Below, in pieces: positions 7,179 through 52,400 of a stretch of 64,000 nucleotides of DNA; position 1 is the stretch's first letter, and every line of letters begins with the position of its first letter. This stretch comes from Narcine bancroftii (taxonomy: Eukaryota), in contig NC_091472.1 of assembly GCF_036971445.1 (NCBI RefSeq), positions 74,028,001 to 74,092,000 on the forward strand. Direction: 5' to 3'. The notes below the pieces were generated by a model. The model had not been told where the DNA came from. It did not search any database and saw only the letters and a program-made list of their open reading frames with translations. The position numbers and the translations under genes were made by a program.

Positions 7179-9883
7179 TTTTCTCTATCTCTTTGCCTCC
7201 ATCTCTGGAGACAAGTTTTCACAGATATTTTCTACAAACATGACAACCCCCAAAATGACCTTGATTAAATATCTGCACACACTGTCCCCTGTAAAGATTC
7301 TATTCTTTACTCTCAATTCCTCTGATTCCATCACATCTGCTCCCAGAAAGAGGTCTTTTATTCCAGATCATCTGAGGTGTCTTCCTCCTTCAAAAAAAGG
7401 TGGCTTTCCATCTACCACCATCAACTCAGCTCTTTTCCACATCTCCAATTCTCACACATCTGTCCTGGACCCTTCCAACCTTAGACACAAGGACAGGATT
7501 TCCATAGAATCATAGAACATTACAGCACAGAAAATCAGGCCATTTGAACATTCCGGTCTGTACTGACCAGTAAAACTAGCTAGTCTCACTGACCTACTCT
7601 CATTCCATAACCCTCCAGACCAATCCTATCCATGTGTTTGTCCAATTTATTTTTAAAACTCAAGATTGAATCTGCATTCACTACATCAGATGGCAGCTCA
7701 TTCCACACTCCTATTATTCTCTGAGTGAAAAGCTTTCCCCTAATGTTCCCCTTATACCTTCCCCCTTTCAGCCTAAAGCTATGACCTCTCATATTTATCT
7801 CCCTCAATCTAAGTGGAAACGTCTACTCTGTTTATACCCCTCAAAATCTTATAAACCTCTATCAAGTCTCTTCGGTCCCTCTTCGGTCCAAGGAATATAA
7901 TCCCAACCTGTTTAATCTTTCCAGTAACTCAACTCCTGAAGACCTTGTAACATCTTAGTAAATCTTCTTTTCACTCTTTCATTCTTATTATCTTTTCTGC
8001 TGCTGGGTGACCAGAGCTGCATACAATTGTGGCCTCACCAATGACTTAAATAACTTCAACATAACATCCCAACTTCTATACTCAAAACTTTGATTTATAA
8101 AGGCTAAGATGCCAAAAGTTTTTTTTATAACCCTGACCACATGTGACGCCATCTTCAGGGAACAATGTATATGTAATCCCAGATCTCTTTGCTCCTCTGC
8201 ACTCCTCAATGGCCTGCCATCATTTACTGTGTACGTCCTACCCTGATTCGCCCTTCCAAAGTTCAACACCTCACACTTATCTGCATTAAATTCCATCAGC
8301 CATTTACTGACCCAATTTCTCAGCTGGTCCAGACGCCTCTGCAAGCTTTGAAAATCTTCCTTACAGACCTCTATGCCTCCTAACTTTGTGTCATCAGCAA
8401 ACTTGCTGATCCAATTCTCCACATTATCATCTAGGTCATTTATAAAGATAACAAACAATAATGGTCCCAACACAGATCCCTGAAGCACACCACTCGACAC
8501 AGACCTCCAGTCTGAGAAGCAACCATCTACCACCACTCTGTTTTCTTCCACCAAGCCAGTTTCAAATCGAGTTTGCAACCTCTCTATGTATACCTAACGT
8601 CGAAATCAACCTATTGTGTGGAACCTTGTCAAAGACCTTACTAAAGTCCATATAAACAACATCTACAGCCTTTCCCTCACCAACCTTCTTCGTAACTTTG
8701 TCAAAAATTCTACAAGATTTGGTAGACCTACCACGCATAAATCCATGCTGACTGTCCTTAATTAATTGATGACGATCCAAATATCTATATATCCTATCTC
8801 AGAAATTCTTCAAATAATTAACATTCTACTAGCATCAGGCTCACTGGCCTGTAATTGCCTGGCTTACTTTTGGAGCCCTTGTTAAACAGTGCAACAACAT
8901 GAACGACTCTTCAATCCTCCGGTACCTCTCCCGTGACTAAGGTCACTTTGAATATATCCACCAGGGGCCCTGCAATTTCAGCACTTGTCTCCCTCAAGGT
9001 GCGGGGAGATATCATCCGGGCCAGGGGATTTGTCCACCTTTATTTGTTGCAAAGCAACAAGCACCCCCATCTCCTTAAACTCCATATGTTCCATAACACT
9101 TCTATTTGTTTTCCTTCCATCCTTATTCACTATGCCAGTTTCATCTGTAAATACTGATGCAAAAAATTTGTTCAAAATCTCCCCTATTTCGTGAGGCATC
9201 GCACATATTTGACCACTCTGATTTTCTAGGGGTCCAATTTTGTCCCTTACTATCCTTTTACTTTTAATATATTTGTAGAAACCCTTTGGATTTTTCTTCA
9301 CATTTTTGCCATCCTAATTTCCTTCTTAAGCATTCTCTTACATTTTCTATACTATGTAAGTAGCTCATTTCCTCCTTGTAGTCTATACCGCATATATAGA
9401 CCCCTCCTTTTTTTTTAAATGAGTTCTCCAATATCCCTTAAAAACCAAGGTTCCCCATGTCTGTTAACTTTGCCCTTATCCCTGGTAGGAACATGCACTC
9501 TCTGCACTCTCAAAATTTTGTCCTTGAAGGCCTTCCACCTGCTGGATGCATCCTTGACAGAAAATAACATTCCAGTTGACTCTCACAAGCTCTTTCCTCA
9601 TTTCCTCAAAATTGGCCTTTATCCAATTCAGAACCTCAACTTGAGGGCTAGACCTATCCTTCTCCATAATTAACTTGAAACTAATGATATTGTGGTCACT
9701 GGACCCAAAATGCTCACCTACACATACTTCTGCCATCTGACCTGCTGAGTTCCCAAAATGATCAAGTATTGCACCTCCTCTTGTTAGTACCTCCATATAT
9801 TGATGAGGAAAACTTTAATGTACACATTTGACAAACTCCAACCCATCCAGTCCTTTTACTGTACGAGAATCCCAGTCTATGTA

Positions 9884-13675: not shown

Positions 13676-13846
13676 GTTTCATGCCAGGTGTCCAGAGAAA
13701 TGCTCAATATGGATCTCAGCAAACTGGACCTCCTATGTCTCCACATCCATCACCTGTTGGACAGATGCACACTGGAATGGGGCCTTATCAGCAAACCAAT
13801 TCCAGCAGCTCTTATGGTCCCCAAAGTGGCCAGTTTGGGCCACAAG
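13676..13846 (+). CDS. ARID1B: ARID1B internal exon B (171 nt, phase 1-1)
   Basis: Polypyrimidine tract + tgtag acceptor and AAG|gtaag donor. (G)[56 protein letters not shown](G) matches ARID1B [35 protein letters not shown]. In frame with exons A and C. Confidence 0.94.
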
Positions 13847-23590: not shown

Positions 23591-24376
23591 CTGTCTAGGC
23601 TTCTTTTCACTGTTCAGAAGAGTGAGAGGGAAGATTGAAATACACAAGGTTACCAGCATGCATGCAGAGAAGATCTTTTCCCCTTTGGGAGAAACTTAAA
23701 GAAGTGATCACTGTTCAAAAGTGTGACATTGTATGATCAAGACTGAAATTAAGTGTTTTCTTTCTATGAAGGTTGCAAACCTTTGGACATGCATCCCCTA
23801 TTCTTTGAGAAAGAAAACTTCTTGGAACAGATAGACTCTTGACAAGGAAGAGGATGATAAAAATTGTTGTTATCATCATATCTGCCACCATCTTAAAGAG
23901 AGCAGTTAGCAGGGAATGAATGGCTTCCAATCCATATGTTCAAATGTAGATATTTGATGTGAATGTAATGAAGGAATACTGGTTTCAAGAAGCATTTTAA
24001 CTTTAATATGGGTAAACAATTAGCTTCAAACTAACAATGAAGCAGGCCATATTCAATTAAGTCTCAAGTCTGAGCCATCTTATGTTATCAGCCTAAAATT
24101 GTATGGACCTGTTTCTCAGGCTGATGGTAATGGCCTGAATTTTGCTTAGGGACAGTCAGTTTCAAACTTCATGCACAATGACAAATCGCGAACTTGCTGG
24201 CCAAACACCACTGGCAATTTTCCACTGTGATCTAAACCTGGATTCCCCATATTGTTTGAGCAGCTGAAAGTGAGTTAGCAAAAGTTCACTTGCCTTTACC
24301 ATGAGGGCTTATATTCTTGCATCTTGTTCTAAGTTGGTGCATTTTATGTGAGCCCATATATATTAATGAGGGTTAT

Positions 24377-25354
24377 CTTCTTTGGCTTGGCTTCGCGGAC
24401 GAAGATTTATGGAGGGGGTAAATGTCCACGTCAGCTGCAGGCTCGTTTGTGGCTGACAAGTCCGATGCGGGACAGGCAGACACGGTTGCAGCGGCTGCAG
24501 GGGAAAATTGGTTGGTTGGGGTTGGGTGTTGGGTTTTTCCTCCTTTGCCTTTTGTCAGTGAGGTGGGCTCTGCGGTCTTCTTCAAAGGAGGTTGCTGCCC
24601 GCCAAACTGTGAGGCGCCAAGATGCACGGTTTGAGGCAATATCAGCCCACTGGCGGTGGTCAATGTGGCAGGCACCAAGAGATTTCTTTAGGCAGTCCTT
24701 GTACCTTTTCTTTGGTGCACCTCTGTCACGGTGGCCAGTGGAGAGCTCGCCATATAACACGATCTTGGGAAGGCGATGGTCCTCCATTCTGGAGACGTGA
24801 CCCACCCAGCGCAGCTGGATCTTCAGCAGCGTGGACTCGATGCTGTCGACCTCTGCCATCTCGAGTACTTCGACGTTAGGGATGAAAGCGCTCCAATGAA
24901 TGTTGAGGATGGAGCGGAGACAACGCTGGTGGAAGCGTTCTAGGAGCCGTAGGTGATGCCGGTAGAGGACCCATGATTCGGAGCCGAACAGGAGTGTGGG
25001 TATGACAACGGCTCTGTATACGCTTATCTTTGTGAGGTTTTTCAGTTGGTTGTTTTTCCAGACTCTTTTGTGTAGTCTTCCAAAGGCGCTATTTGCCTTG
25101 GCGAGTCTGTTGTCTATCTCATTGTCGATCCTTGCATCTGATGAAATGGTGCAGCCGAGATAGGTAAACTGGTTGACCGTTTTGAGTTTTGTGTGCCCGA
25201 TGGAAATGTGGGGGGGCTGGTAGTCATGGTGGGGAGCTGGCTGATGGAGGACCTCAGTTTTCTTCAGGCTGACTTCCAGGCCAAACATTTTGGCAGTTTC
25301 CGCAAAGCAGGACGTCAAGCGCTGAAGAGCTGGCTCTGAATGGGCAACTAAAGC
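24377..25354 (-). mobile_element. RTE-clade LINE, 5'-truncated (copy 2), 3' half of a chimeric insertion
   Basis: Open frame from ALVAHSEPALQR to SHKRACS; near-identical to copies 1 and 3. Confidence 0.92.
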
Positions 25355-26189
25355 ACAACAGGTCACAAGTCCCAACAGAAAAGAGGAAACACCAATACCT
25401 TCAGTCGCGGAGTGGGTTCTGCTAAAGGTCATCAAAAGAAAGTGGTCGGAGCCCAGGTGGACAGGACCCTACAGAGTGGTGGAGAGGACGTCCCACGCGG
25501 TTCGACTACTGGGAAAAGGAGACGTGGTATCATTGGAGTCAGTGAACAGCAACGGACCCACCGACACGGACACTGGAACAGATTCGAACGGAGGTGACTG
25601 GGACCCTGTGAAGCAACTATGGACTAAGAACTTTTTGAACGGGTCCCTTTAAAGAGACTATTGGATTACAGTGACTGTATTTCAGTATTTGAAGTGATAT
25701 TTCTATATTGAAGTCAACAGAATTTAGGGGGCTGTGATGGACACTATGTGGGGACTATGAGTGATGTTGTTCCTAGCCCTTGAAACATCTGGAGAAGGAA
25801 ACAACTGTACAAAGTGTTTGTGGTCAGCCTGGGAGGCCCATAACGAACCGAAACAGTACTTTGCGGATTGGACTGACGTTCCTGAACACAGTGTTGGGGC
25901 CCCCACTGGACTGAAGTGTGTTCATAATGGCCAAGTTCGTGAGGTTAAGTTTAACAAGGGGTCGGAGATGCCGGTCCTTGCAAAAACTCCTGAGGTCTTG
26001 GTCCCATAAGTTAACTGGTGGTTGGTCTCATTTTCATGAGACCAAAAGGGGGACTGTTGGAATCTAGGGGTTAAAACCTTATGAAAGAAATGATTAATTA
26101 ATAAGTTTATATTTACTGCATGGTTCAGGGAAAAAGAGGAATGTGATTAAGTGGCAATCACAGCATGGAGCAAAGTTGGCTGAGCAAAA
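25355..26189 (+). mobile_element. Endogenous retrovirus fragment: integrase C-terminus, env-like remnant, PPT, start of 3' LTR
   Basis: Hand translation EWVLLKVIKRKWSEPRWTGPYRVVERTSHAVRLLGKGD/WYHWSQ* (GPY/F module). Signal-peptide-like ORF from 25737 (MDTMWGL*VMLFLAL..NNCTKC). PPT aaaaggggga 26044-26053, then TG at 26055. Confidence 0.8.
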
Positions 26190-26475
26190 TATATATATTG
26201 ACCTCCTTCCCTTCTGCCCATTCTAACGCTGCTATCATTCCCTATAGTTCTGCGAGTTGTGCTGACTCCTTTCCTCTCACTGTCCCTGTAATGATTTCTT
26301 CAAATCCTCCTGTAGTTTCTCGTACCACCGCATAGGCAGCTTTCAATCCATCTGTGGGGTGTCTGTAACAACACCCATCTGTAAACAAGGTTTCATCTGG
26401 TTCTCTTAAGGGTGTAGCCTGTAAGTCAGGTCTTATTTTAATATCCTTTACTACCCTCTTCTCACAACAGTGTGG
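26190..26475 (-). mobile_element. Endogenous retrovirus pol fragment (RNase H), inverted relative to the integrase piece
   Basis: Hand translation PHCCEKRVVKDIKIRPDLQATPLREPDETLFTDGCCYR...AAYAVV...GKESAQLAEL*GMIAALEWAEGKEVNIY; retroviral RNase H motifs FTDG, SAQxAEL, VNIY. Confidence 0.88.
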
Positions 26476-26504
26476 TATTAATGAGGGTTATAAGGGTGTG
26501 ACAA

Positions 26505-29005
26505 AAGTAAAAACACCGAAATGCTGGAGGAACTCAGCTGGTCATTTCAGCATCTAAAAGAGACAAGGATATATCGCCAGTGCTTCAGCCCTGCACCCTT
26601 CTTAAAGGAAAAATCAGAAATGGCAGAAACAGGATATATCAAAAAGTCTTAGAATTCAAACAATGGGGGAGAAATCCAGACCAACAAAAGGTGTTAATTG
26701 GATGTAATAAGGGACTAGGTTGAATTTATCACGTCTGTGAGATGGCGGAGGTAGCAGGGGTGGGGAGGGGGATGAGGTTTAATGAAAGCCAGAGAAGTTG
26801 ATATAAATGCCATCCTGTTGGAGGGTACCCAATTTACTGATGTTCTCTGTTTGGCAGTACATGAGACCATGGACAGACATGTCAGCAAGGGAATGTGATG
26901 GAGAATTTTAATAGGTGGCCACTGGGAGATCCACACTTTTGCGGTGGATAGAGCCGAGGTGCTCAATGAAGCGATCTCCAGTCTACGCCCAGTCTCTCCA
27001 ATGTAGAGGAAACCATATCGGGAGCACAAAACGCAGTAGATTCACAAATGAAATGTTTCTTCAATTTGTAGGACTGTTTGGAGCCCTGAATGGTGCTGAG
27101 GGAGGAGGAGTGGGTGGAAGTGGAGCATCTCTATGGTCACAGGGTAGGTCCCAAGGGGACGATTGGTGGAAAGGGAGGAGTGGACATGGGAGTCACGTTG
27201 GGAGTAATCCCTGCGGAAGGAGGAGAGGAGAATATGTGTCTGATGATGGGATCACATTGTAGGTAGTGGAAATGGCAGAAGAGGGTGTATTGGATGCAAG
27301 GGGTGGTGGGGTGGTAGGTGAAGACAAGATAAATCCTGTCCTTGTGTGTGGGGGCAGAGGGAGCCAGGGCAGATGTGTGGGTAATGGAGGAATTGAGAGA
27401 ATGGGATGGAATCCTTCATGGGGACAGGGTGGGAAGAGGTCTAGTCGAGGTAGCTGTGTGAGTTGGTGGGTTTGTGAAGATGTCTGTTGAGCGTTTATCA
27501 ACTGAGATGGGGACAGAGAGATTGAGAAAAGGGAAAGTGTTGCTAGAGGTGAACCAAGTGAATTTGAGGTCAGGGTGGAAGTTTGCAGCAAAGTGGATGA
27601 GGTCAACGAGGGTACATGAGGCAGCACCAAAGCAGTCATTGATGTCACAGCGGTAGAGTTGAGGTGCCTTGCCTGTGTAGGCTTGTAGCGTAGATTGCTC
27701 CTTGTGACCAACAAAAAGGCAAGCATAGTTGGGACCCATGCAGGTACCCATGGCTACCCCTTTAACCTGGAGAAAGTACAGTGAGTCAAAGGAGAAATTA
27801 TTGAGGGTGAGGACAATTTCCACCAGCCAGAGGAGGGTGGTGGTGAAGGAGGGGGGCTGGTTGGTTATATTGTCCTGAAAGAAATGAAAGGCTTTGAGGC
27901 CTTCAATATGGGGAATTGAGGTGTAAAGAGATTGGATATCTATGGTAAATGAGACGATCAAGTTCAGGGAAATGTAAGTTGTTGAAGTAATGGAGTGCAT
28001 GTGAAGTATCCTGGATGTAGGTGGGGAGGGACTGGACCGGGGGGGGACAAAACAGAGTTGGGGTAAGAGGAGACCAATTTGGCAGGACATGTATACGCAG
28101 ACACGATGGGTCTTCTAGGACAATTGGGTTTGTGGCTCTTGAGTAGGAAGTAGAAATGGGAGGTACAGGGTTGGAAAATAATAAGGTTGGAGGCTGTGCC
28201 AGGAATGCCACCAGAAGTGGAGTCCAGAGATGGTGCATGATACAGCGGTTTGATGGGTTTTGGTTGGGTCCTGTTGGCAGGACATTTCATGTGAATCTGC
28301 ACGGGTCACCTACTGCATTTGGTGCTCCTGCTATGGTCGTCTCTACATCCGAGAGACTGGGCACAGACTGGGAGATCGTTTTGTTGAGCACCTCGGCTCT
28401 GTCCACTGCAATAGCGTGGATCTCCCAGTGGCCACCCATTTCCATTCTCCATTACATATCCTTGCAAACATGTCTGTCCATGGTCTTGTACCGCCAGTAA
28501 ATCGGAGAAACAATACTTCATCTTCCGACTGGGCACCCCCCTACCAGATGACATTAATATCGACCTCTGGCTTTCATTAAACCCCATCACCACCACCGCT
28601 GCGCCCCCCTTCCCCTCCCCCTCCCCGGATGTTGTCTCTCCAACTCTCCATTCACTGTCTCTTATAAAGCCATTTCACTATAACTATTTTTGGCTCTGGT
28701 AGGTATAAAATATTCCACAGTTCAATTTGATGAACTTGATCACTCTGCCAGTATCATCGCCAGCCTTAATCTCTCGTGTAACATCACCAAAACATTTCCC
28801 TTATCACATCCAATTAACACCTTTTGTTGGTCTGGATTCCTTCCCCATTGTTTGAATTCCAAGACTTTCTGATATATCCTCCTTCTGCCTTTTCTGATTT
28901 TCATTGAAGAAGGGCTCAGGGCTGAAAGATCAGTAATATATCTTTGTCTCCTATAAATGCTGAATTGACCAGCTGAGATCCTCCAGCATTTTGGTGTGTT
29001 TACTT
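26505..29005 (-). mobile_element. Penelope-like element with inverted 5' pseudo-LTR segment (minus ~26505-28285, plus ~28285-29005)
   Basis: Minus: RT DIQSLYTSIPH, QVKGVAMGTCMGPNYACLFV and GIY-YIG CSRYGFLYIGETGRRL. Plus: second GIY-YIG copy YCIWCSCYGRLYIRETGHRLGDRFVEHL. Ends are inverted repeats (gctggaggaactcagctggtc / gaccagctgagatcctccagc). Confidence 0.88.
28664..28797 (+). repeat. ~133-bp dispersed direct duplication, copy inside Penelope (partner 29889-30021)
   Basis: ataaagccatttcactataactattt...catcaccaaaacattt is near-identical at both sites. Confidence 0.9.
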
Positions 29006-46805: not shown

Positions 46806-49124
46806 AGAGCACAAGGAATATTTTATGTTCAAAATCAAAACCACTAGGCGCCAGTTTAGTATTGATGTTCCAATTTGATCGTAGGATGAATAAGGTGAAT
46901 AAGAACCTCCCCTGCCCTCATTCTCTCTGACATCAAGCCCCTCTTCCATTTCTACGTCAATTGTTTTCAAATCCAGCCAAGCCCATTTCCTGGGAAAATC
47001 CTCAATCTTTATCACCTTTAGTTGTGTGACCTGCTAAATATCTCCAGCACATTTGTGGATTGGACTCGACCCCAACGAGTGTAGACTTTCCTGTTTAATT
47101 CTCCTTTAATTAGCTTAAAAAACTAACTAAAAAGATTCATTTTGCCCAAACCCCTTCCCTCACATCTCCAGTTCTATGGATTTAAATTCCTGCCCTTTCC
47201 CGGCTTTTAACTCATCAATCCAATAATTTTCCAAAACCCTTCAAGAATCTTTCGTTCCTCTGAATCTGCTACCTGATTTCACATCTTCCTTCCCCTGAGT
47301 TTGGGTTCTGAAATTTCCTGCTGAAAGTTCAAATTGAAAACTCTTCTTAAAAACCCAGTTTCAACCAAGTTTTTAATTGGTCTTCCTTTTACGCCAATGT
47401 TTTTATTTTAACGATTTACAATGAAATATTTTGGAAGGTTTTGCTACCATAGCATTTCATAATGGAAACTGCTGTCTTAGTTGAAAGATATCTGTGATAA
47501 TAAATTACTTGACACATTGATATGTTGCCTCAAATTATTTCATTTAATTTTATTTCCAGAATGGTGATGACATCCACAAACATATTATTTGACCAAAAAT
47601 GCCTTTAAGTGGTTTGTGTGTTGCATATGTTCAATTTCAGAAATCTATGCAGATCATTGTTCATTTTTATTTGAATAACATTGATTTGAAAATGTATATT
47701 TATGGTTGTGGTTTTGTGGAGATGGTGATGGTTGTGATCTTTGAATTTAACACTGTGTATCTCAAACTACCACACTGGGAGTTATGGAGAAATGCCAGAA
47801 TATGTATTTTTTAATATTTAATTCATCTTTCACTTGAGATGTTGAATAGTTTGTGTGAATTTCTTAGCCAAGGCAATATTATGCTGAAATATTTCAAGGA
47901 AAGATGCATTCGAAGTAAATGGTCGCTGAAGTATAGGTATAACACAAATAACAGACATCTGAAATGTATTTATTTTTAGTATACTAAATGTAGCAATGAT
48001 CTAGTATGATAGACAGGTGGCATTTGTGTGTGAGTGTGTGTGCTTGTGTGTGTATTTGATATTTTTGGTGTTGAAGATGATATTTAGCTGATTTGATAAC
48101 CTTGCTTACCCTAATCTGGCACAAGATAAACTAACATAGTGCCTAACAAAAGTTTATTTATCAGATCATTGAGGAATGTAGCAACATAGCCAGTAATTCT
48201 GTGTCTCAGATGTGCCTTTTCCCTAGATTTTTAAATTAACCACCGTGTCGGTGCCAACTGCATGTTTGAGCTTATAGAGCTATAGGTCTATGACATAACA
48301 ACTATTCAGGTTTAATTTCAATTAATTTTTTCATTGACTGAGCATGTATATTTATGTCCACGTAAGATTAATAACACATCTAGATGTGCAAGCATTTCTG
48401 CAAAGGTTGTTTGTGGTCTGAGACTGCACAAGGAGTTTGGTACCAATTCAATCCATGAACGTTTTGATCTGCAGATTGGATAGCAATGTTGAGGAAGTCA
48501 ATTTATGCCAGACTTGATTCTGGGGTAGAAAAAAGACAAGTTGATGTTGAGTATTCCCATTGCACCAAGGAACTTTTTAACTTATTGGAGAATACCCCTA
48601 TCATCAAAACAAAATTTATTATCCAAATAGATGTCATTCTGGATGGTTGATTAGATACACAGATTTAAATTGGCTAATGAGTTCACAAGATTTTTGCAAC
48701 CTTTGCACTTTGTGGCTAAGAATGAATAACTAGTTATGTTGGTTTATTTTACAGATATTAAACTGACATTTTCAGTGCTGAGGACTTTGAAAATATGCAG
48801 TTCAATGTTGTAAATGTTTGCCTTAAGTACTTTAACTGAAGAAAGGTTAAAATATTAATTAAAAATTTTTAAGCTATTTTGTGGATTATAATTTTAAAAC
48901 TGTAATCCTTGTATTATTCCTAGACAAAGCTTTAATCTTAAAGGATCCATGCAACTTTGCTGTTCCAAATATCCAATAGTTGCCACTTCAATTAATTTGA
49001 AAGGTTACACAGGATTCATAGCTATTTCAAATTGTGAGAAACTGTAACACTTTTTTTTTGACCATGGACATTTCATAGCAGGCTGGCACAAGACCAACTT
49101 CTTCCAATTTTTTTTTTGTTTTAG

Positions 49125-49464
49125 GTAATTATCCCAGACCGCCAAATTATGGTGGAGTACCGAACGCCAACTACAGTGGTCCAGGTCCAGGCATGAATAA
49201 CAACATGAGCATGAATATGAACAACCAGATGCATGGTCAGGGTCCAGCTCAGCCTTGCAGTAACATGACAGTGGGGAGGATGTCATCATCAGGGATGTCG
49301 AACTGGCCATACTCTGGCAACATGAGTAATATGACCCCAAACTCTCCAAGCATGTCACAGCAGGTTGGCGCGGGGATGGGACCGCCAATGGCAACTGTAA
49401 ATCGCAAGGCACAGGAGGCTGCTGCTGCAGTGATGCAGGCTGCAGCAAACTCTGCTCAAAACAG
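49125..49464 (+). CDS. ARID1B: ARID1B internal exon C (340 nt, phase 1-2)
   Basis: T-rich tract + ttag acceptor and CAG|gtatg donor. (G)[23 protein letters not shown]...[13 protein letters not shown]...[30 protein letters not shown](R); [20 protein letters not shown] is diagnostic of ARID1B. Confidence 0.95.
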
Positions 49465-52400
49465 GTATGCAAGAAAAAATGGTCTCGAAAGGCTGGATGC
49501 AGAATTCGTAAACTTTTTACGTGACAATACTGAAAGCTTTAATGAAAGCATTCACGTAAATTTTGTCTCTGTCACTCCTCACACAGGTTTTATTTTAAAA
49601 GTAAAAGATACGTAGCTGATTTTCAACTCATCCTGAACTATAATTTGCAATGAATGGCTCTATATTTGTTACATATTGAATATGGTTCCTGTTGTGAGGC
49701 AACTGGTTAACAATCTCCTGCTCAAAAATATATACATGGGCTTATTTGTACTTCAGAATTCAGAAGGGAGACAGGCTACGCCAAGACAAACTATTATATG
49801 CACAACTTCTCCATTTTGTTCATTTTTAACAGTAGAGTGCTCAGTGGACATAAGAGTATATTTGGGATAAATCATAGACTTGGCTAGTTGGGCACCTTAT
49901 AAATGATTTCCCCTTTTGTGTTATTCGGCAACTGTATTCCTATCACCCAGTGCAAAATTATCTTGACCAGCAAACCCAAAGTTGTAGATTAGGTGAAACT
50001 GAAAATATGAAACCAAAGACAATATCTCTGTGAGCCATGATCTACAGAGAGTGATGGACATTTGAAAGCAAGTTGAAATAACCTGAATATTTTTAATATT
50101 TCTCGTGCTCCCTCCTGATTTAATTATATTTTGATTAGAAGTAATGCTATAATCACAAAACTCCAGGATATTCACACTTACATATGCACTTTTTCTTTTT
50201 TTTAAAAATTGCTTCACTTTCATCTATTGTTAGCCAAGAAAATACTGAAGAATTGCCAGATTTAACATTCAGTCATATTTTAAATGTTTCCAGTTAAATG
50301 CTTCTGAATTTTGTACAATACGTTATTTTTTACTGAAGCAAATATTATATGATAATTTTAAAATAATATCTAGTTCTGAGGATTCAGACTATACTTTGTT
50401 GCAAATATGAACTGTGTTCATTTTACATAACAAGGAAATGAATGGCTTCATATTGGATGATACTAGCTAACAAACTGGATTACGTTCTCCATTCGTCAGT
50501 TCTTGCCGTTTGATGAACATGATGTAAAAGCAAGGCATTTCGTTGGGTATTTGGGAGCCAACAATTGGGCTATATATTTCAAAATGTGCTCTCTGTTAGA
50601 AAATCAAGTAATGTAGTTGAAGTAAGTTGTGGTGAACCTTTATTTAACTTGTGTTGGAGTGTGTGAGAGAAAGTAGCCAATGAGCAAATTGAAAACAAGC
50701 TGAAACAGAAAATCTTAAATTACTGGTAAATTGACAAATATTTCTTTTTGCCCTCAATATCTTTGAGAAGACTCCAATCTCAGATACAAATTTTGGTATG
50801 TACTGATATACTTGCATTGTAATCCCTCGTTATTTTGTTGATTTAGCAATGTTTCCTCCTGTTTTCTGACTTCTAGACAATCCTTTGTTGAATAACTGAA
50901 CTCGAGTCTCAACATGTAATCTTTACTTGTTGGCTCACACTGGCTGTCTCTTTACAGGGGCAGGTTGGACATTTGTTTTTACCTTTCTCTATTAGTATCT
51001 TGTCACCATTCAAGAAGCCAAATCTCAGCCTTGAATGTTTGAATTGAGAAGCTAATGATGTAATTGGAGTTTCTTTGTGGTTATGGTATTGTATTATATA
51101 GAATTAGTTTCTTATGCTTTATTTATATTTCCTTTCCTCTGTAGTAATTATTTTATGCTAGTTTTCACTTAATAGTTTGGTTAGCAGGAAAGGAGGAGGA
51201 TAATTGCTGTTTGAAACATTTTTTATTTGATCGTCATTCTTTTATAGTGACTTTTCAGATCATTTTACTTGGCAATGTTCAAAAATTGTTACCAGTGAAG
51301 CATTTTGAATTTTGTGGAGGTTTTTTGGCTGTACAACTCTTAAATATAGTTCTAATTCTGCAATAATATGTTGCTTTGCACTTCATGTTGAAAATATTTG
51401 TCCACCATTAGATTCAATGATTACTGTTTCACGTGTGAAATAAAATGTACATCATTGGAAATGTTGGCAGGCAGAAAATCAAAAATTTAATCAACGTATA
51501 TTGCATTATCAGTAATGCATTGTGAACATAAGTGGTATGACATAATATTTATTAAGGAACCATGTTGATTGTCTGGGCAGAATGTATTTTCTGTGAAAAA
51601 GTGATGCATCTTGTGTATCACTAATCTGCATGCAACACACAGATTGCATTTAAACAATGACCGGTGGATTTTGGGAGCCGAGCGCTGAGAAAGTTGGAAC
51701 CTAGTTTCATTCAAGTTTCAGCCTTATTTGTAACTTGGGAAAAGCCTTACCCAGTTATGAATCATTAGTTTCTTTATTTGCATGGTGTGGAGGCAAAATG
51801 TGTCATCTCAGTGAGAAGCAATCAGAAAACTAAATTATTGTCCTGTCACATTGTATTCTCGTTGGCTAGTCTTTTTATGTGGCAGTGTTGTAACTTCCTT
51901 TCAGATGCACAAGGATATAGATTACCAGTTGGAGAGGGAAGAGATTAAATAACACATGTAAACATTATACCATTGTGGAAGCGAAACAAACCTGGTTCCA
52001 CGCCACAGTGCTACAAGTCTTTAAAGGGTTATTTTTACTTCAACTCTTCATAATCTCTATTTTCTTTCAATATTTGAAGGTAAATTAAAACAAATAAATA
52101 AAAAATCCATCTGTACTTTTCTGTCCCTCAGAATTGTTGACCATTTTATGTAACCCTTTCTATTTGAATATTCATTTTGGTTGAATTACTGTTAATGTGA
52201 ATTACTGGAAGCTGAACATGATAGTCTTGTCATCCAGAGAAAAAAAAATCTTAAAACTATTAGTGAGAAAAACAATTTGAAGAATCTGTGTTTCCATGTG
52301 GTTTATTGGCAAGTAACTGTTACTTTACACTGTTTAAAAATGACATCTAGCCAAATTAAAACCCATTGGAATGAATGTTTCAGATTTACACTTTTTGTGG

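Follow-up and report, generated by a model that had tools for sequence, protein, structure and literature searches.

Structure of the insertion and its host intron

The window, which is the whole stretch of DNA analysed (64 kb), belongs to the same 3.33-Gb Narcine bancroftii assembly in which the searches were carried out. It contains two exons of an ARID1-family gene and, between them, an insertion composed of a 978-nt LINE 3' end and two pieces (A and B) of a high-copy endogenous retrovirus (ERV), enclosed by two copies of one 16-mer. The features are as follows:

13676..13846, plus strand: ARID1-family exon upstream of the insertion, AG/GT bounded, in frame with the next exon
24361..24376, no strand: target-site duplication, tail side, 16 bp; its first base can be read as tail too
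24377..25354, minus strand: young APE-RT LINE (RTE-type), 3' 978 nt with the end of the RT ORF (stop at 24431), 3' UTR and short AG tail; 98.2-99.4% to 29 other copies
25355..25611, plus strand: piece B, ERV integrase C-terminus, frame broken at 25519; MLVIN_C match at E 0.0016, below cut-off
25737..26009, plus strand: piece B, 90-codon ATG frame between integrase and polypurine tract (PPT), with a hydrophobic start, broken here by a stop at 25758-25760
26043..26054, plus strand: piece B, PPT
26055..26190, plus strand: piece B, first 136 nt of the 815-nt LTR, ending 13-15 nt before a LINE hot spot at LTR position ~150
26190..26475, minus strand: piece A, 286 nt of ERV sequence (connection/RNase H start), 99% to its best match with 3 mismatches; RNase_H match at E 4e-4, below cut-off
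26476..26491, no strand: target-site duplication, 5' side; last base (RTE sense) common with piece A
26492..26505, minus strand: LINE-family target signature upstream of the duplication, T at -1 and TTT at -12 to -14
49125..49464, plus strand: ARID1-family exon downstream of the insertion, AG/GT bounded, in frame with the upstream exon

Exons 13676-13846 and 49125-49464 flank a 35-kb intron, and the insertion is located there, with the LINE antisense to the gene. By its sequence, the host gene is a member of the ARID1 family: the last exon, 116 kb downstream, matched BAF250_C at E 4e-125, and its sole PDB matches were ARID1A chains; a PDB search with the ARID1 exon at 49079-49612 gave no match. 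The preliminary description had placed the insertion in an ARID1B intron. An ARID1-family intron is supported by the exons, and the B is that description's own paralogue label. The insertion is probably neutral for the gene, as it lies deep in a 35-kb intron and consists of fragments only, and the inserted copy is likely inert because it carries no promoter, complete gene or LTR poly(A) signal.

The 16-mer TATTAATGAGGGTTAT occurs exactly (16/16) at 24361-24376 and 26476-26491, in agreement with the duplication first described around the whole insert, and the match cannot be extended on either side; about 1e-4 further exact copies are expected by chance in 64 kb. Read in RTE sense (minus strand), the order is piece A (26475-26190), piece B (26190-25354) and LINE (25354-24377). 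All three joins (host/A, A/B and B/LINE) have 1 nt of common sequence each, overlaps that are uninformative on mechanism. The LINE 3' end and tail are intact and adjoin the duplication. Target-site duplications of this LINE family measure 8-21 bp, a range that includes the 16 bp of the window; RTE duplications are mostly 7-15 bp according to the available part of PMC6007223, and 16 bp is slightly long against these. From 41 LINE copies whose two ends were both visible, 15 non-window copies with a credible duplication were used for deriving a family target signature: T at -14 (10/15), T at -13 (13/15), T at -12 (10/15), T at -1 (14/15) and A at +1 (14/15). The window agrees with it at 5/5 positions. 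This signature resembles the T-stretch target signature given for RTE elements in the accessible text of the same source (PMC6007223).

The ERV's own target duplication is 4 bp (two loci read), so the 16-mer was not made by an integrase. Integrase-type provirus ends were not found at the insert, where LTR sequence amounts to 136 of 815 nt only; the absence of an integrase-type duplication and of a complete LTR, already remarked upon in the preliminary description, is thereby borne out. A copy-number check of the two internal junctions, which that description had proposed, was carried out by using 28-mers with up to 2 mismatches. Each junction occurred once in the 3.33-Gb assembly, which indicates a one-off insertion and excludes a mobile chimeric family for this assembly. 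With a fitting target signature, single-copy junctions and no integrase-type ends, the insertion is a single RTE-made event, as had been proposed, and a recent one.

The retroviral pieces and the LINE family

The ERV is abundant: when 40 of 2349 candidates were scored, 39 non-self matches to piece B were obtained at 95-97%, and the best ordinary provirus match (L002) reached 97.5%. Piece B lies at a distance of 19 from its nearest copy, within the ERV family range of 0-20. The family has an 815-nt LTR, gag, protease, RT, RNase H, an integrase with an MLV-type C-terminus and a PPT, the anatomy of a class I-like ERV; natural whole copies gave strong Pfam matches, as against the weak ones on the window fragments. 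The family replicated recently; the two LTRs of L073 are 99.9% alike. Piece A lies upstream of piece B in the same sense in 19/19 other loci compared (one has a partial A), with a gap of 1203 nt in L073. The ERV block of the window is therefore rearranged, and the preliminary description had read it correctly. Its further statement that a LINE carried retroviral genes into the intron holds for fragments (about 77 codons around the RNase H start, about 85 of the integrase tail and one broken 90-codon frame) but not for whole genes, with the 1.2 kb between the pieces missing. The 90-aa frame matched no family in Pfam or Atlas (best Atlas score 0.81), and the label "env remnant" attached to it is a guess. 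Two further ideas on piece B were rejected. A G-to-A excess, considered as a sign of a single-stranded DNA template, is family-wide (50 vs 27) and no different in the window (p 0.16); and a common ERV breakpoint at the exact end of B was not upheld by three other pattern matches, which were variants or deletions and not chimeras.

On the LINE side, a full-length natural copy (L199, 3.28 kb) encodes endonuclease and RT in one ORF (Exo_endo_phos_2, 2e-7; RVT_1, 1e-34), and the LINE fragment of the window gave a weak RVT_1 match in Pfam at E 0.015, below cut-off. A length of ~3.3 kb, one APE-RT ORF and a short repeat tail without poly(A) make up RTE-type anatomy; the clade is presumed to be RTE from this anatomy and the preliminary description. 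No AATAAA or ATTAAA occurs in the last 300 nt of the LINE, and a run of at least 12 A follows the tail in 1/164 distinct LINE tails; run-on RNA with internal priming is thus likely the rule. The LINE part of the window has no private changes in 977 nt (compared with 29 copies), as against 8 in the 1123 nt of the ERV pieces (compared with 21 and 35 copies). The contrast has a p of 0.009, or 0.075 if counted cautiously, and depends on copy sampling. It fits a young LINE within an older provirus.

The family twin-primes often. In a first survey, 5' inversions with 11-bp duplications were found in 5/40 other LINE copies. A pattern designed to find LINE copies that break off where that of the window does then gave 133 matches, 90 of which were analysed; 28 were variants in which the LINE continues and 62 were true breaks. 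The latter comprised 9 without a tail in view, 19 with a near duplication, 20 with no duplication, 11 inversions and 3 likely chance cases. The inversions (11 of the 53 junctions with the tail in view) had 10-14-bp duplications and 0-5 nt of overlap at the host end; one locus is common to the two surveys. ERV sequence upstream of the LINE break was seen at 0/62 other junctions (1.5-3.5 kb viewed), which indicates that ERV capture is rare. The 179-nt GC-rich 5' piece of L050 was rejected as foreign DNA, being the LINE's own 5' UTR repeat in inverted orientation. The far "duplications" of L065, reg35465, reg-97105, L207, L212 and L252, which are low-complexity or include tail letters, were taken as chance, and an RNA hairpin at the LINE break was dismissed because no unusual fold was obtained (z -0.94).

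Template polarity and a LINE hot spot in the LTR

The first cDNA runs along the plus strand from 24377 and enters piece B as ERV sense; from the second host end, the minus strand from 26476 leads into piece A, likewise in ERV sense. As both pieces are ERV-sense outward from the free DNA ends, an ERV minus-strand template is needed and one such template suffices; it was likely the template used. Two routes put forward in the preliminary description are not supported in the form given there. A plain switch onto sense retroviral RNA would place ERV sense beside the LINE, the opposite of the polarity found, whereas in the window the antisense piece adjoins the LINE and the ERV-sense piece lies at the far end. 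A pre-formed chimeric transcript, if copied without interruption, is not supported either: neither junction has a second copy, and A and B have opposed orientations.

A genome-wide pattern search gave 45 loci at which the tail of this LINE lies antisense at one LTR site, position ~150, with 13, 14 or 15 LTR bases between the point where piece B ends and the LINE tail (3, 31 and 11 loci, respectively). A single control anchor elsewhere in the LTR gave 0 loci. The LINEs at this hot spot range from 28 nt to full length. The 26 that were long enough to be placed in a tree were unclustered (19 changes vs a shuffled mean of 20.4; 165/500 shuffles as low), so homing from one source was rejected as the cause, and independent strikes on a preferred endonuclease site are indicated. 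The target signature is present at the site; it recurs at 8588, where the LINE of L003 is inserted. L190 has two outward-facing U3 ends and a 4-bp duplication, and its hot spot is occupied by a LINE.

Eight of the 45 loci have the LINE in a 3' LTR (donor-type), and three of these retain A-B together with at least 977 nt of LINE. A LINE without a poly(A) signal in a 3' LTR would likely give run-on RNA that contains antisense U3, PPT, integrase and RNase H, which is the template that the polarity demands. The eight donor-type loci match piece B at 91.0-95.5%, compared with the 97.5% of the best ordinary provirus. None of them is the donor, and two exact private-variant patterns found only the window in the assembly. 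Individual candidates were rejected as follows: L046, a close relative of the window's LINE, lies antisense just past the end of B, as does L128, and both are in lone LTRs; the LINE of L179 is cut at the same base as that of the window, with 41 differences in B. In L073, and likewise in 3/3 donor-type loci checked, two antisense AATAAA motifs separate the hot spot from piece A.

Origin of the retroviral pieces

The explanation to which we give the highest probability, about 0.45, is that the ERV pieces were copied from the 3' read-through part of the LINE's own RNA, the donor LINE lying antisense in the 3' LTR of a provirus. Its observed base consists of the duplication, the target signature, the single-copy junctions, the polarity, the hot spot, the donor-type loci and the twin-primed inversions, and the steps given here are a reconstruction. 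The donor RNA would have had the order 5'-LINE-tail-antiU3-antiPPT-anti-integrase-antiRNaseH-3'. The intron would have been nicked by the endonuclease and reverse transcription started from the internal AG tail, with the run-on RNA left hanging at the break. After 978 nt, the first cDNA would have jumped to the run-on RNA at the integrase tail and been extended back toward the LINE tail, yielding piece B and stopping ~15 nt short. The second host end would have primed further 3' on the same RNA, from which 286 nt were copied as piece A, and the two cDNA ends would have been joined with a 1-nt overlap. As an outcome, the 3' flank of the donor would stand at the 5' end of the insertion, half inverted.

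Several points count against the run-on explanation. The donor is absent from this assembly, donor-type loci are rare among LINE copies, the link to the hot spot is post hoc and was set against one control anchor, with 2.8% of a provirus situated no more than 16 nt from some signature site, and the run-on RNA must pass both antisense AATAAA motifs before reaching A. No second captured 3' flank was identified, the 62 other junctions at the window's LINE position included. The inverted LINE body that marks twin priming at the host 5' end is not what is found here, the outer piece being ERV; piece A works like twin priming only if the template is the run-on RNA.

Capture of free ERV cDNA is a strong rival, if on balance a somewhat unlikely one. 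The break of a stalled LINE insertion would have been patched, either by end joining with two free ERV cDNA fragments or by copying from minus-strand cDNA, and the end of B near the hot spot would be a LINE endonuclease cut in unintegrated ERV DNA. RT-product capture at double-strand breaks (RMDR) is known from mouse zygotes, where, in the available part of PMC4516963, breaks take up truncated ERV pol pieces, several per site, with 1-5 nt overlaps; the breaks described there were made by Cas9 or random and the captures were mostly without duplication, in contrast to the LINE tail and target signature at the present break. Recent replication of the ERV (L073) and the layout of L190, which fits LINE action on unintegrated ERV DNA, speak for such capture, and it needs neither poly(A)-signal read-through nor a missing LINE-bearing donor. 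However, four breaks are required and the common polarity of the pieces is left to chance; the 16-bp overhang is intact, a state that in L1 goes with twin priming and not with processed ends (PMC11702581, accessible portion); B ends at 7938 (L073 coordinates), whereas the most upstream cluster of LTR resumption after hot-spot insertions is at 7942-7946; and L190 can also be explained by a later LINE insertion with deletion. Template switching among separate RNAs, an adjusted form of the route proposed in the preliminary description, from LINE RNA to antisense ERV RNA (B) and then to a sense RNA or a twin-primed product (A), appears improbable. As far as the available text of the sources goes, double jumps (PMC2104539), RTE-clade U6 chimeras in anole (PMC4476161) and two-RNA L1 insertions in either orientation (PMC11702581) are on record. 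The order A(+) B(-) LINE(+) is impossible from sense RNA alone. Such switching requires a free antisense ERV RNA, here hypothetical, and it makes the nearness to the hot spot coincidental, leaving unexplained an end of B that lies 13-15 nt from a site struck 45 times.

It is very unlikely that the structure results from misassembly, or from a provirus that entered a longer LINE at a later time and was subsequently shortened and inverted. In 4 runs of one sample, no contig was listed across the two internal junctions or across the right-hand one; infrequent connections between repeats are lost from such contigs, so this blank is uninformative. One contig (one sequencing run) matches the unique left flank, the whole duplication and the adjoining 23 nt of the LINE with 0 mismatches; the 23 nt are under the 31-nt bridging rule. 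Among the contigs listed, none links 24376 directly to 26492 as an empty allele would, and those of related organisms do not reach the flank. The junctions have 1 nt of common sequence and no long repeat, and stepwise decay would call for an inversion and three deletions that together stopped precisely at an intact duplication bearing the LINE signature. Although the insert has kept the LINE tail that a mobile LINE-ERV element requires, membership in such a family can be set aside almost entirely, since the several copies expected of an SVA-like element were not found in 3.33 Gb (each junction once, up to 2 mismatches).

Chimeric LINEs, twin priming and ERV copies produced by LINEs are already known, and the event in the window is a variant of these, not a new kind of system. 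The comparisons that follow are limited to the accessible parts of the sources. The L1 "twin priming & 3' switching" insertions (10.1101/2024.08.27.596794) likewise hold three parts within one duplication: an inversion at the host 5' end, next a segment that keeps its orientation and was copied from far away on the same RNA, and last the primary cDNA. All three parts come from the L1 body in that case, and reverse transcription starts at the poly(A) end, whereas here the element is RTE-type, priming was likely at the internal tail, and the ERV pieces would derive from 3' of that tail. Related three-piece and two-RNA insertions are found in PMC11702581. Chimeras of the types U6/L1, U6/RTEX, tRNA/L1 and 5S/L1 and the tripartite WEIRD-SINE-MGL (PMC4476161, 10.1101/2025.02.02.635956, PMC13174262, PMC2104539) also have foreign sequence 5' of a truncated LINE within one duplication, and opposite orientation is put down to twin priming there; their partners are small RNAs, Alu or mRNA, mostly in one piece, whereas here one provirus contributes two pieces, which lie 1.2 kb apart in it and are opposed in the insert. 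Extra 5' sequences of zebrafish LINEs have been described as well (Genome Res 2007, via PMC4245944). In L1 3' transduction (10.1101/2024.08.27.596794, PMC7265360), the donor's 3' flank is also moved by run-on RNA, but it stands 3' of the LINE, in sense and with poly(A), whereas here it would stand 5', partly inverted and with no poly(A). A donor with the same LINE beside the moved flank, by which 3' transduction is recognised, was not found among the eight donor-type loci.

HERV-W processed pseudogenes derive from viral sense RNA and have the form R-U5...U3-R with poly(A). The insert of the window, by comparison, is fragmentary, with opposed pieces, and is fused to a LINE. What the two have in common is ERV sequence inserted by LINE machinery, that of L1 in the HERV-W case (PMC5537654, PMC5016936, available parts). 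A literature search, which took in few subscription papers and no supplements, found no RTE element putting a 3' flank at its 5' end and no RTE hot spot in an ERV LTR; Figures S7-S10 of PMC11702581 may hold closer cases.

In general terms, and still more tentatively than for the single event, LINEs that prime at an internal tail might carry the 3' flank of their donor in the particle and paste it 5' of the new insertion, partly inverted, as a hidden form of transduction; the LTR hot spot would make proviruses donors and so seed LINE-retrovirus hybrids. Searches for 3' tags would miss a transduction pasted at the 5' end in this way. If the run-on explanation is true, RTE-type LINEs move neighbouring DNA while leaving neither poly(A) nor a 3' tag, and some of the unexplained 5' "extra" DNA of non-L1 LINEs could be traceable to donor loci. 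Independently of the model, the 45 independent LINE insertions at one LTR position form a natural replicate series, informative on RTE target choice and on the damage done by one retroelement to another.

Insertion of the LINE into the retroviral LTR

Position about 150 of the LTR of the high-copy endogenous retrovirus (ERV) is a sharp insertion hot spot of the young RTE-type LINE, which was found there at 45 loci of the same assembly (L132-L176), in antisense orientation at all 45, against no LINE insertion at another LTR position searched in the same way as a control. The 45 insertions are separate events, independent of each other. Rearranged or nested LTRs were found at two hot-spot loci:

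L190:2145-3871 (G000:C1:100.6 Mb), composite in the order LTR 1-150, 798-nt LINE, inverted near-complete LTR
L199:5489-6950, lone LTR, inverted, within an LTR already carrying a full-length hot-spot LINE

Both U3 ends of the L190 composite point outward and are enclosed by a 4-bp duplication, and between its two U3 pieces there are 2 differences in 150 nt; the locus may have originated as a rearranged cDNA that integrated.

Features of the ERV family

L013:1884-2156 and window 25737-26009, 90-aa ATG frame at the env position
L073:762-780, primer-binding-site-like 18-mer, 3' of the 5' LTR

Most of 19 proviral copies keep the 90-aa frame open; it has a hydrophobic start and several cysteines, and a family search with it gave no match. 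The 18-mer is presumably of the tRNA-Trp type. Non-CpG changes in the ERV sense, counted family-wide (L002-L020 and other provirus copies), comprised 50 G-to-A versus 27 C-to-T (p 0.012), an excess that is possibly a trace of editing.

LINE copies and the adjoining repeat

Window 26506-29000, repeat that has RT/GIY-YIG-like frames and in which the inverted arms are long

This repeat, which we take to be Penelope-like, starts about 14 nt from the right-hand target-site duplication; one of its frames had no match in Pfam.

Twin-primed 5' inversions are frequent in the LINE family (L050, L056, L064, L134, L165, L178, L192 and 10 more among L200-L289), and a GC-rich tandem repeat within the 5' UTR (unit about 169 bp) differs in copy number between copies (L181-L189, L050).

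The base at which the window's LINE copy breaks (25354) recurs in many copies (L179, L138, L064, L192, L200-L289). Nothing unusual was found in the fold at this position. True breaks were present there in 62 of 90 analysed copies, taken from 133 pattern matches, and 2 of the 45 hot-spot copies break 2 nt or less from it; the position is possibly a truncation hot spot, for which it is a candidate.
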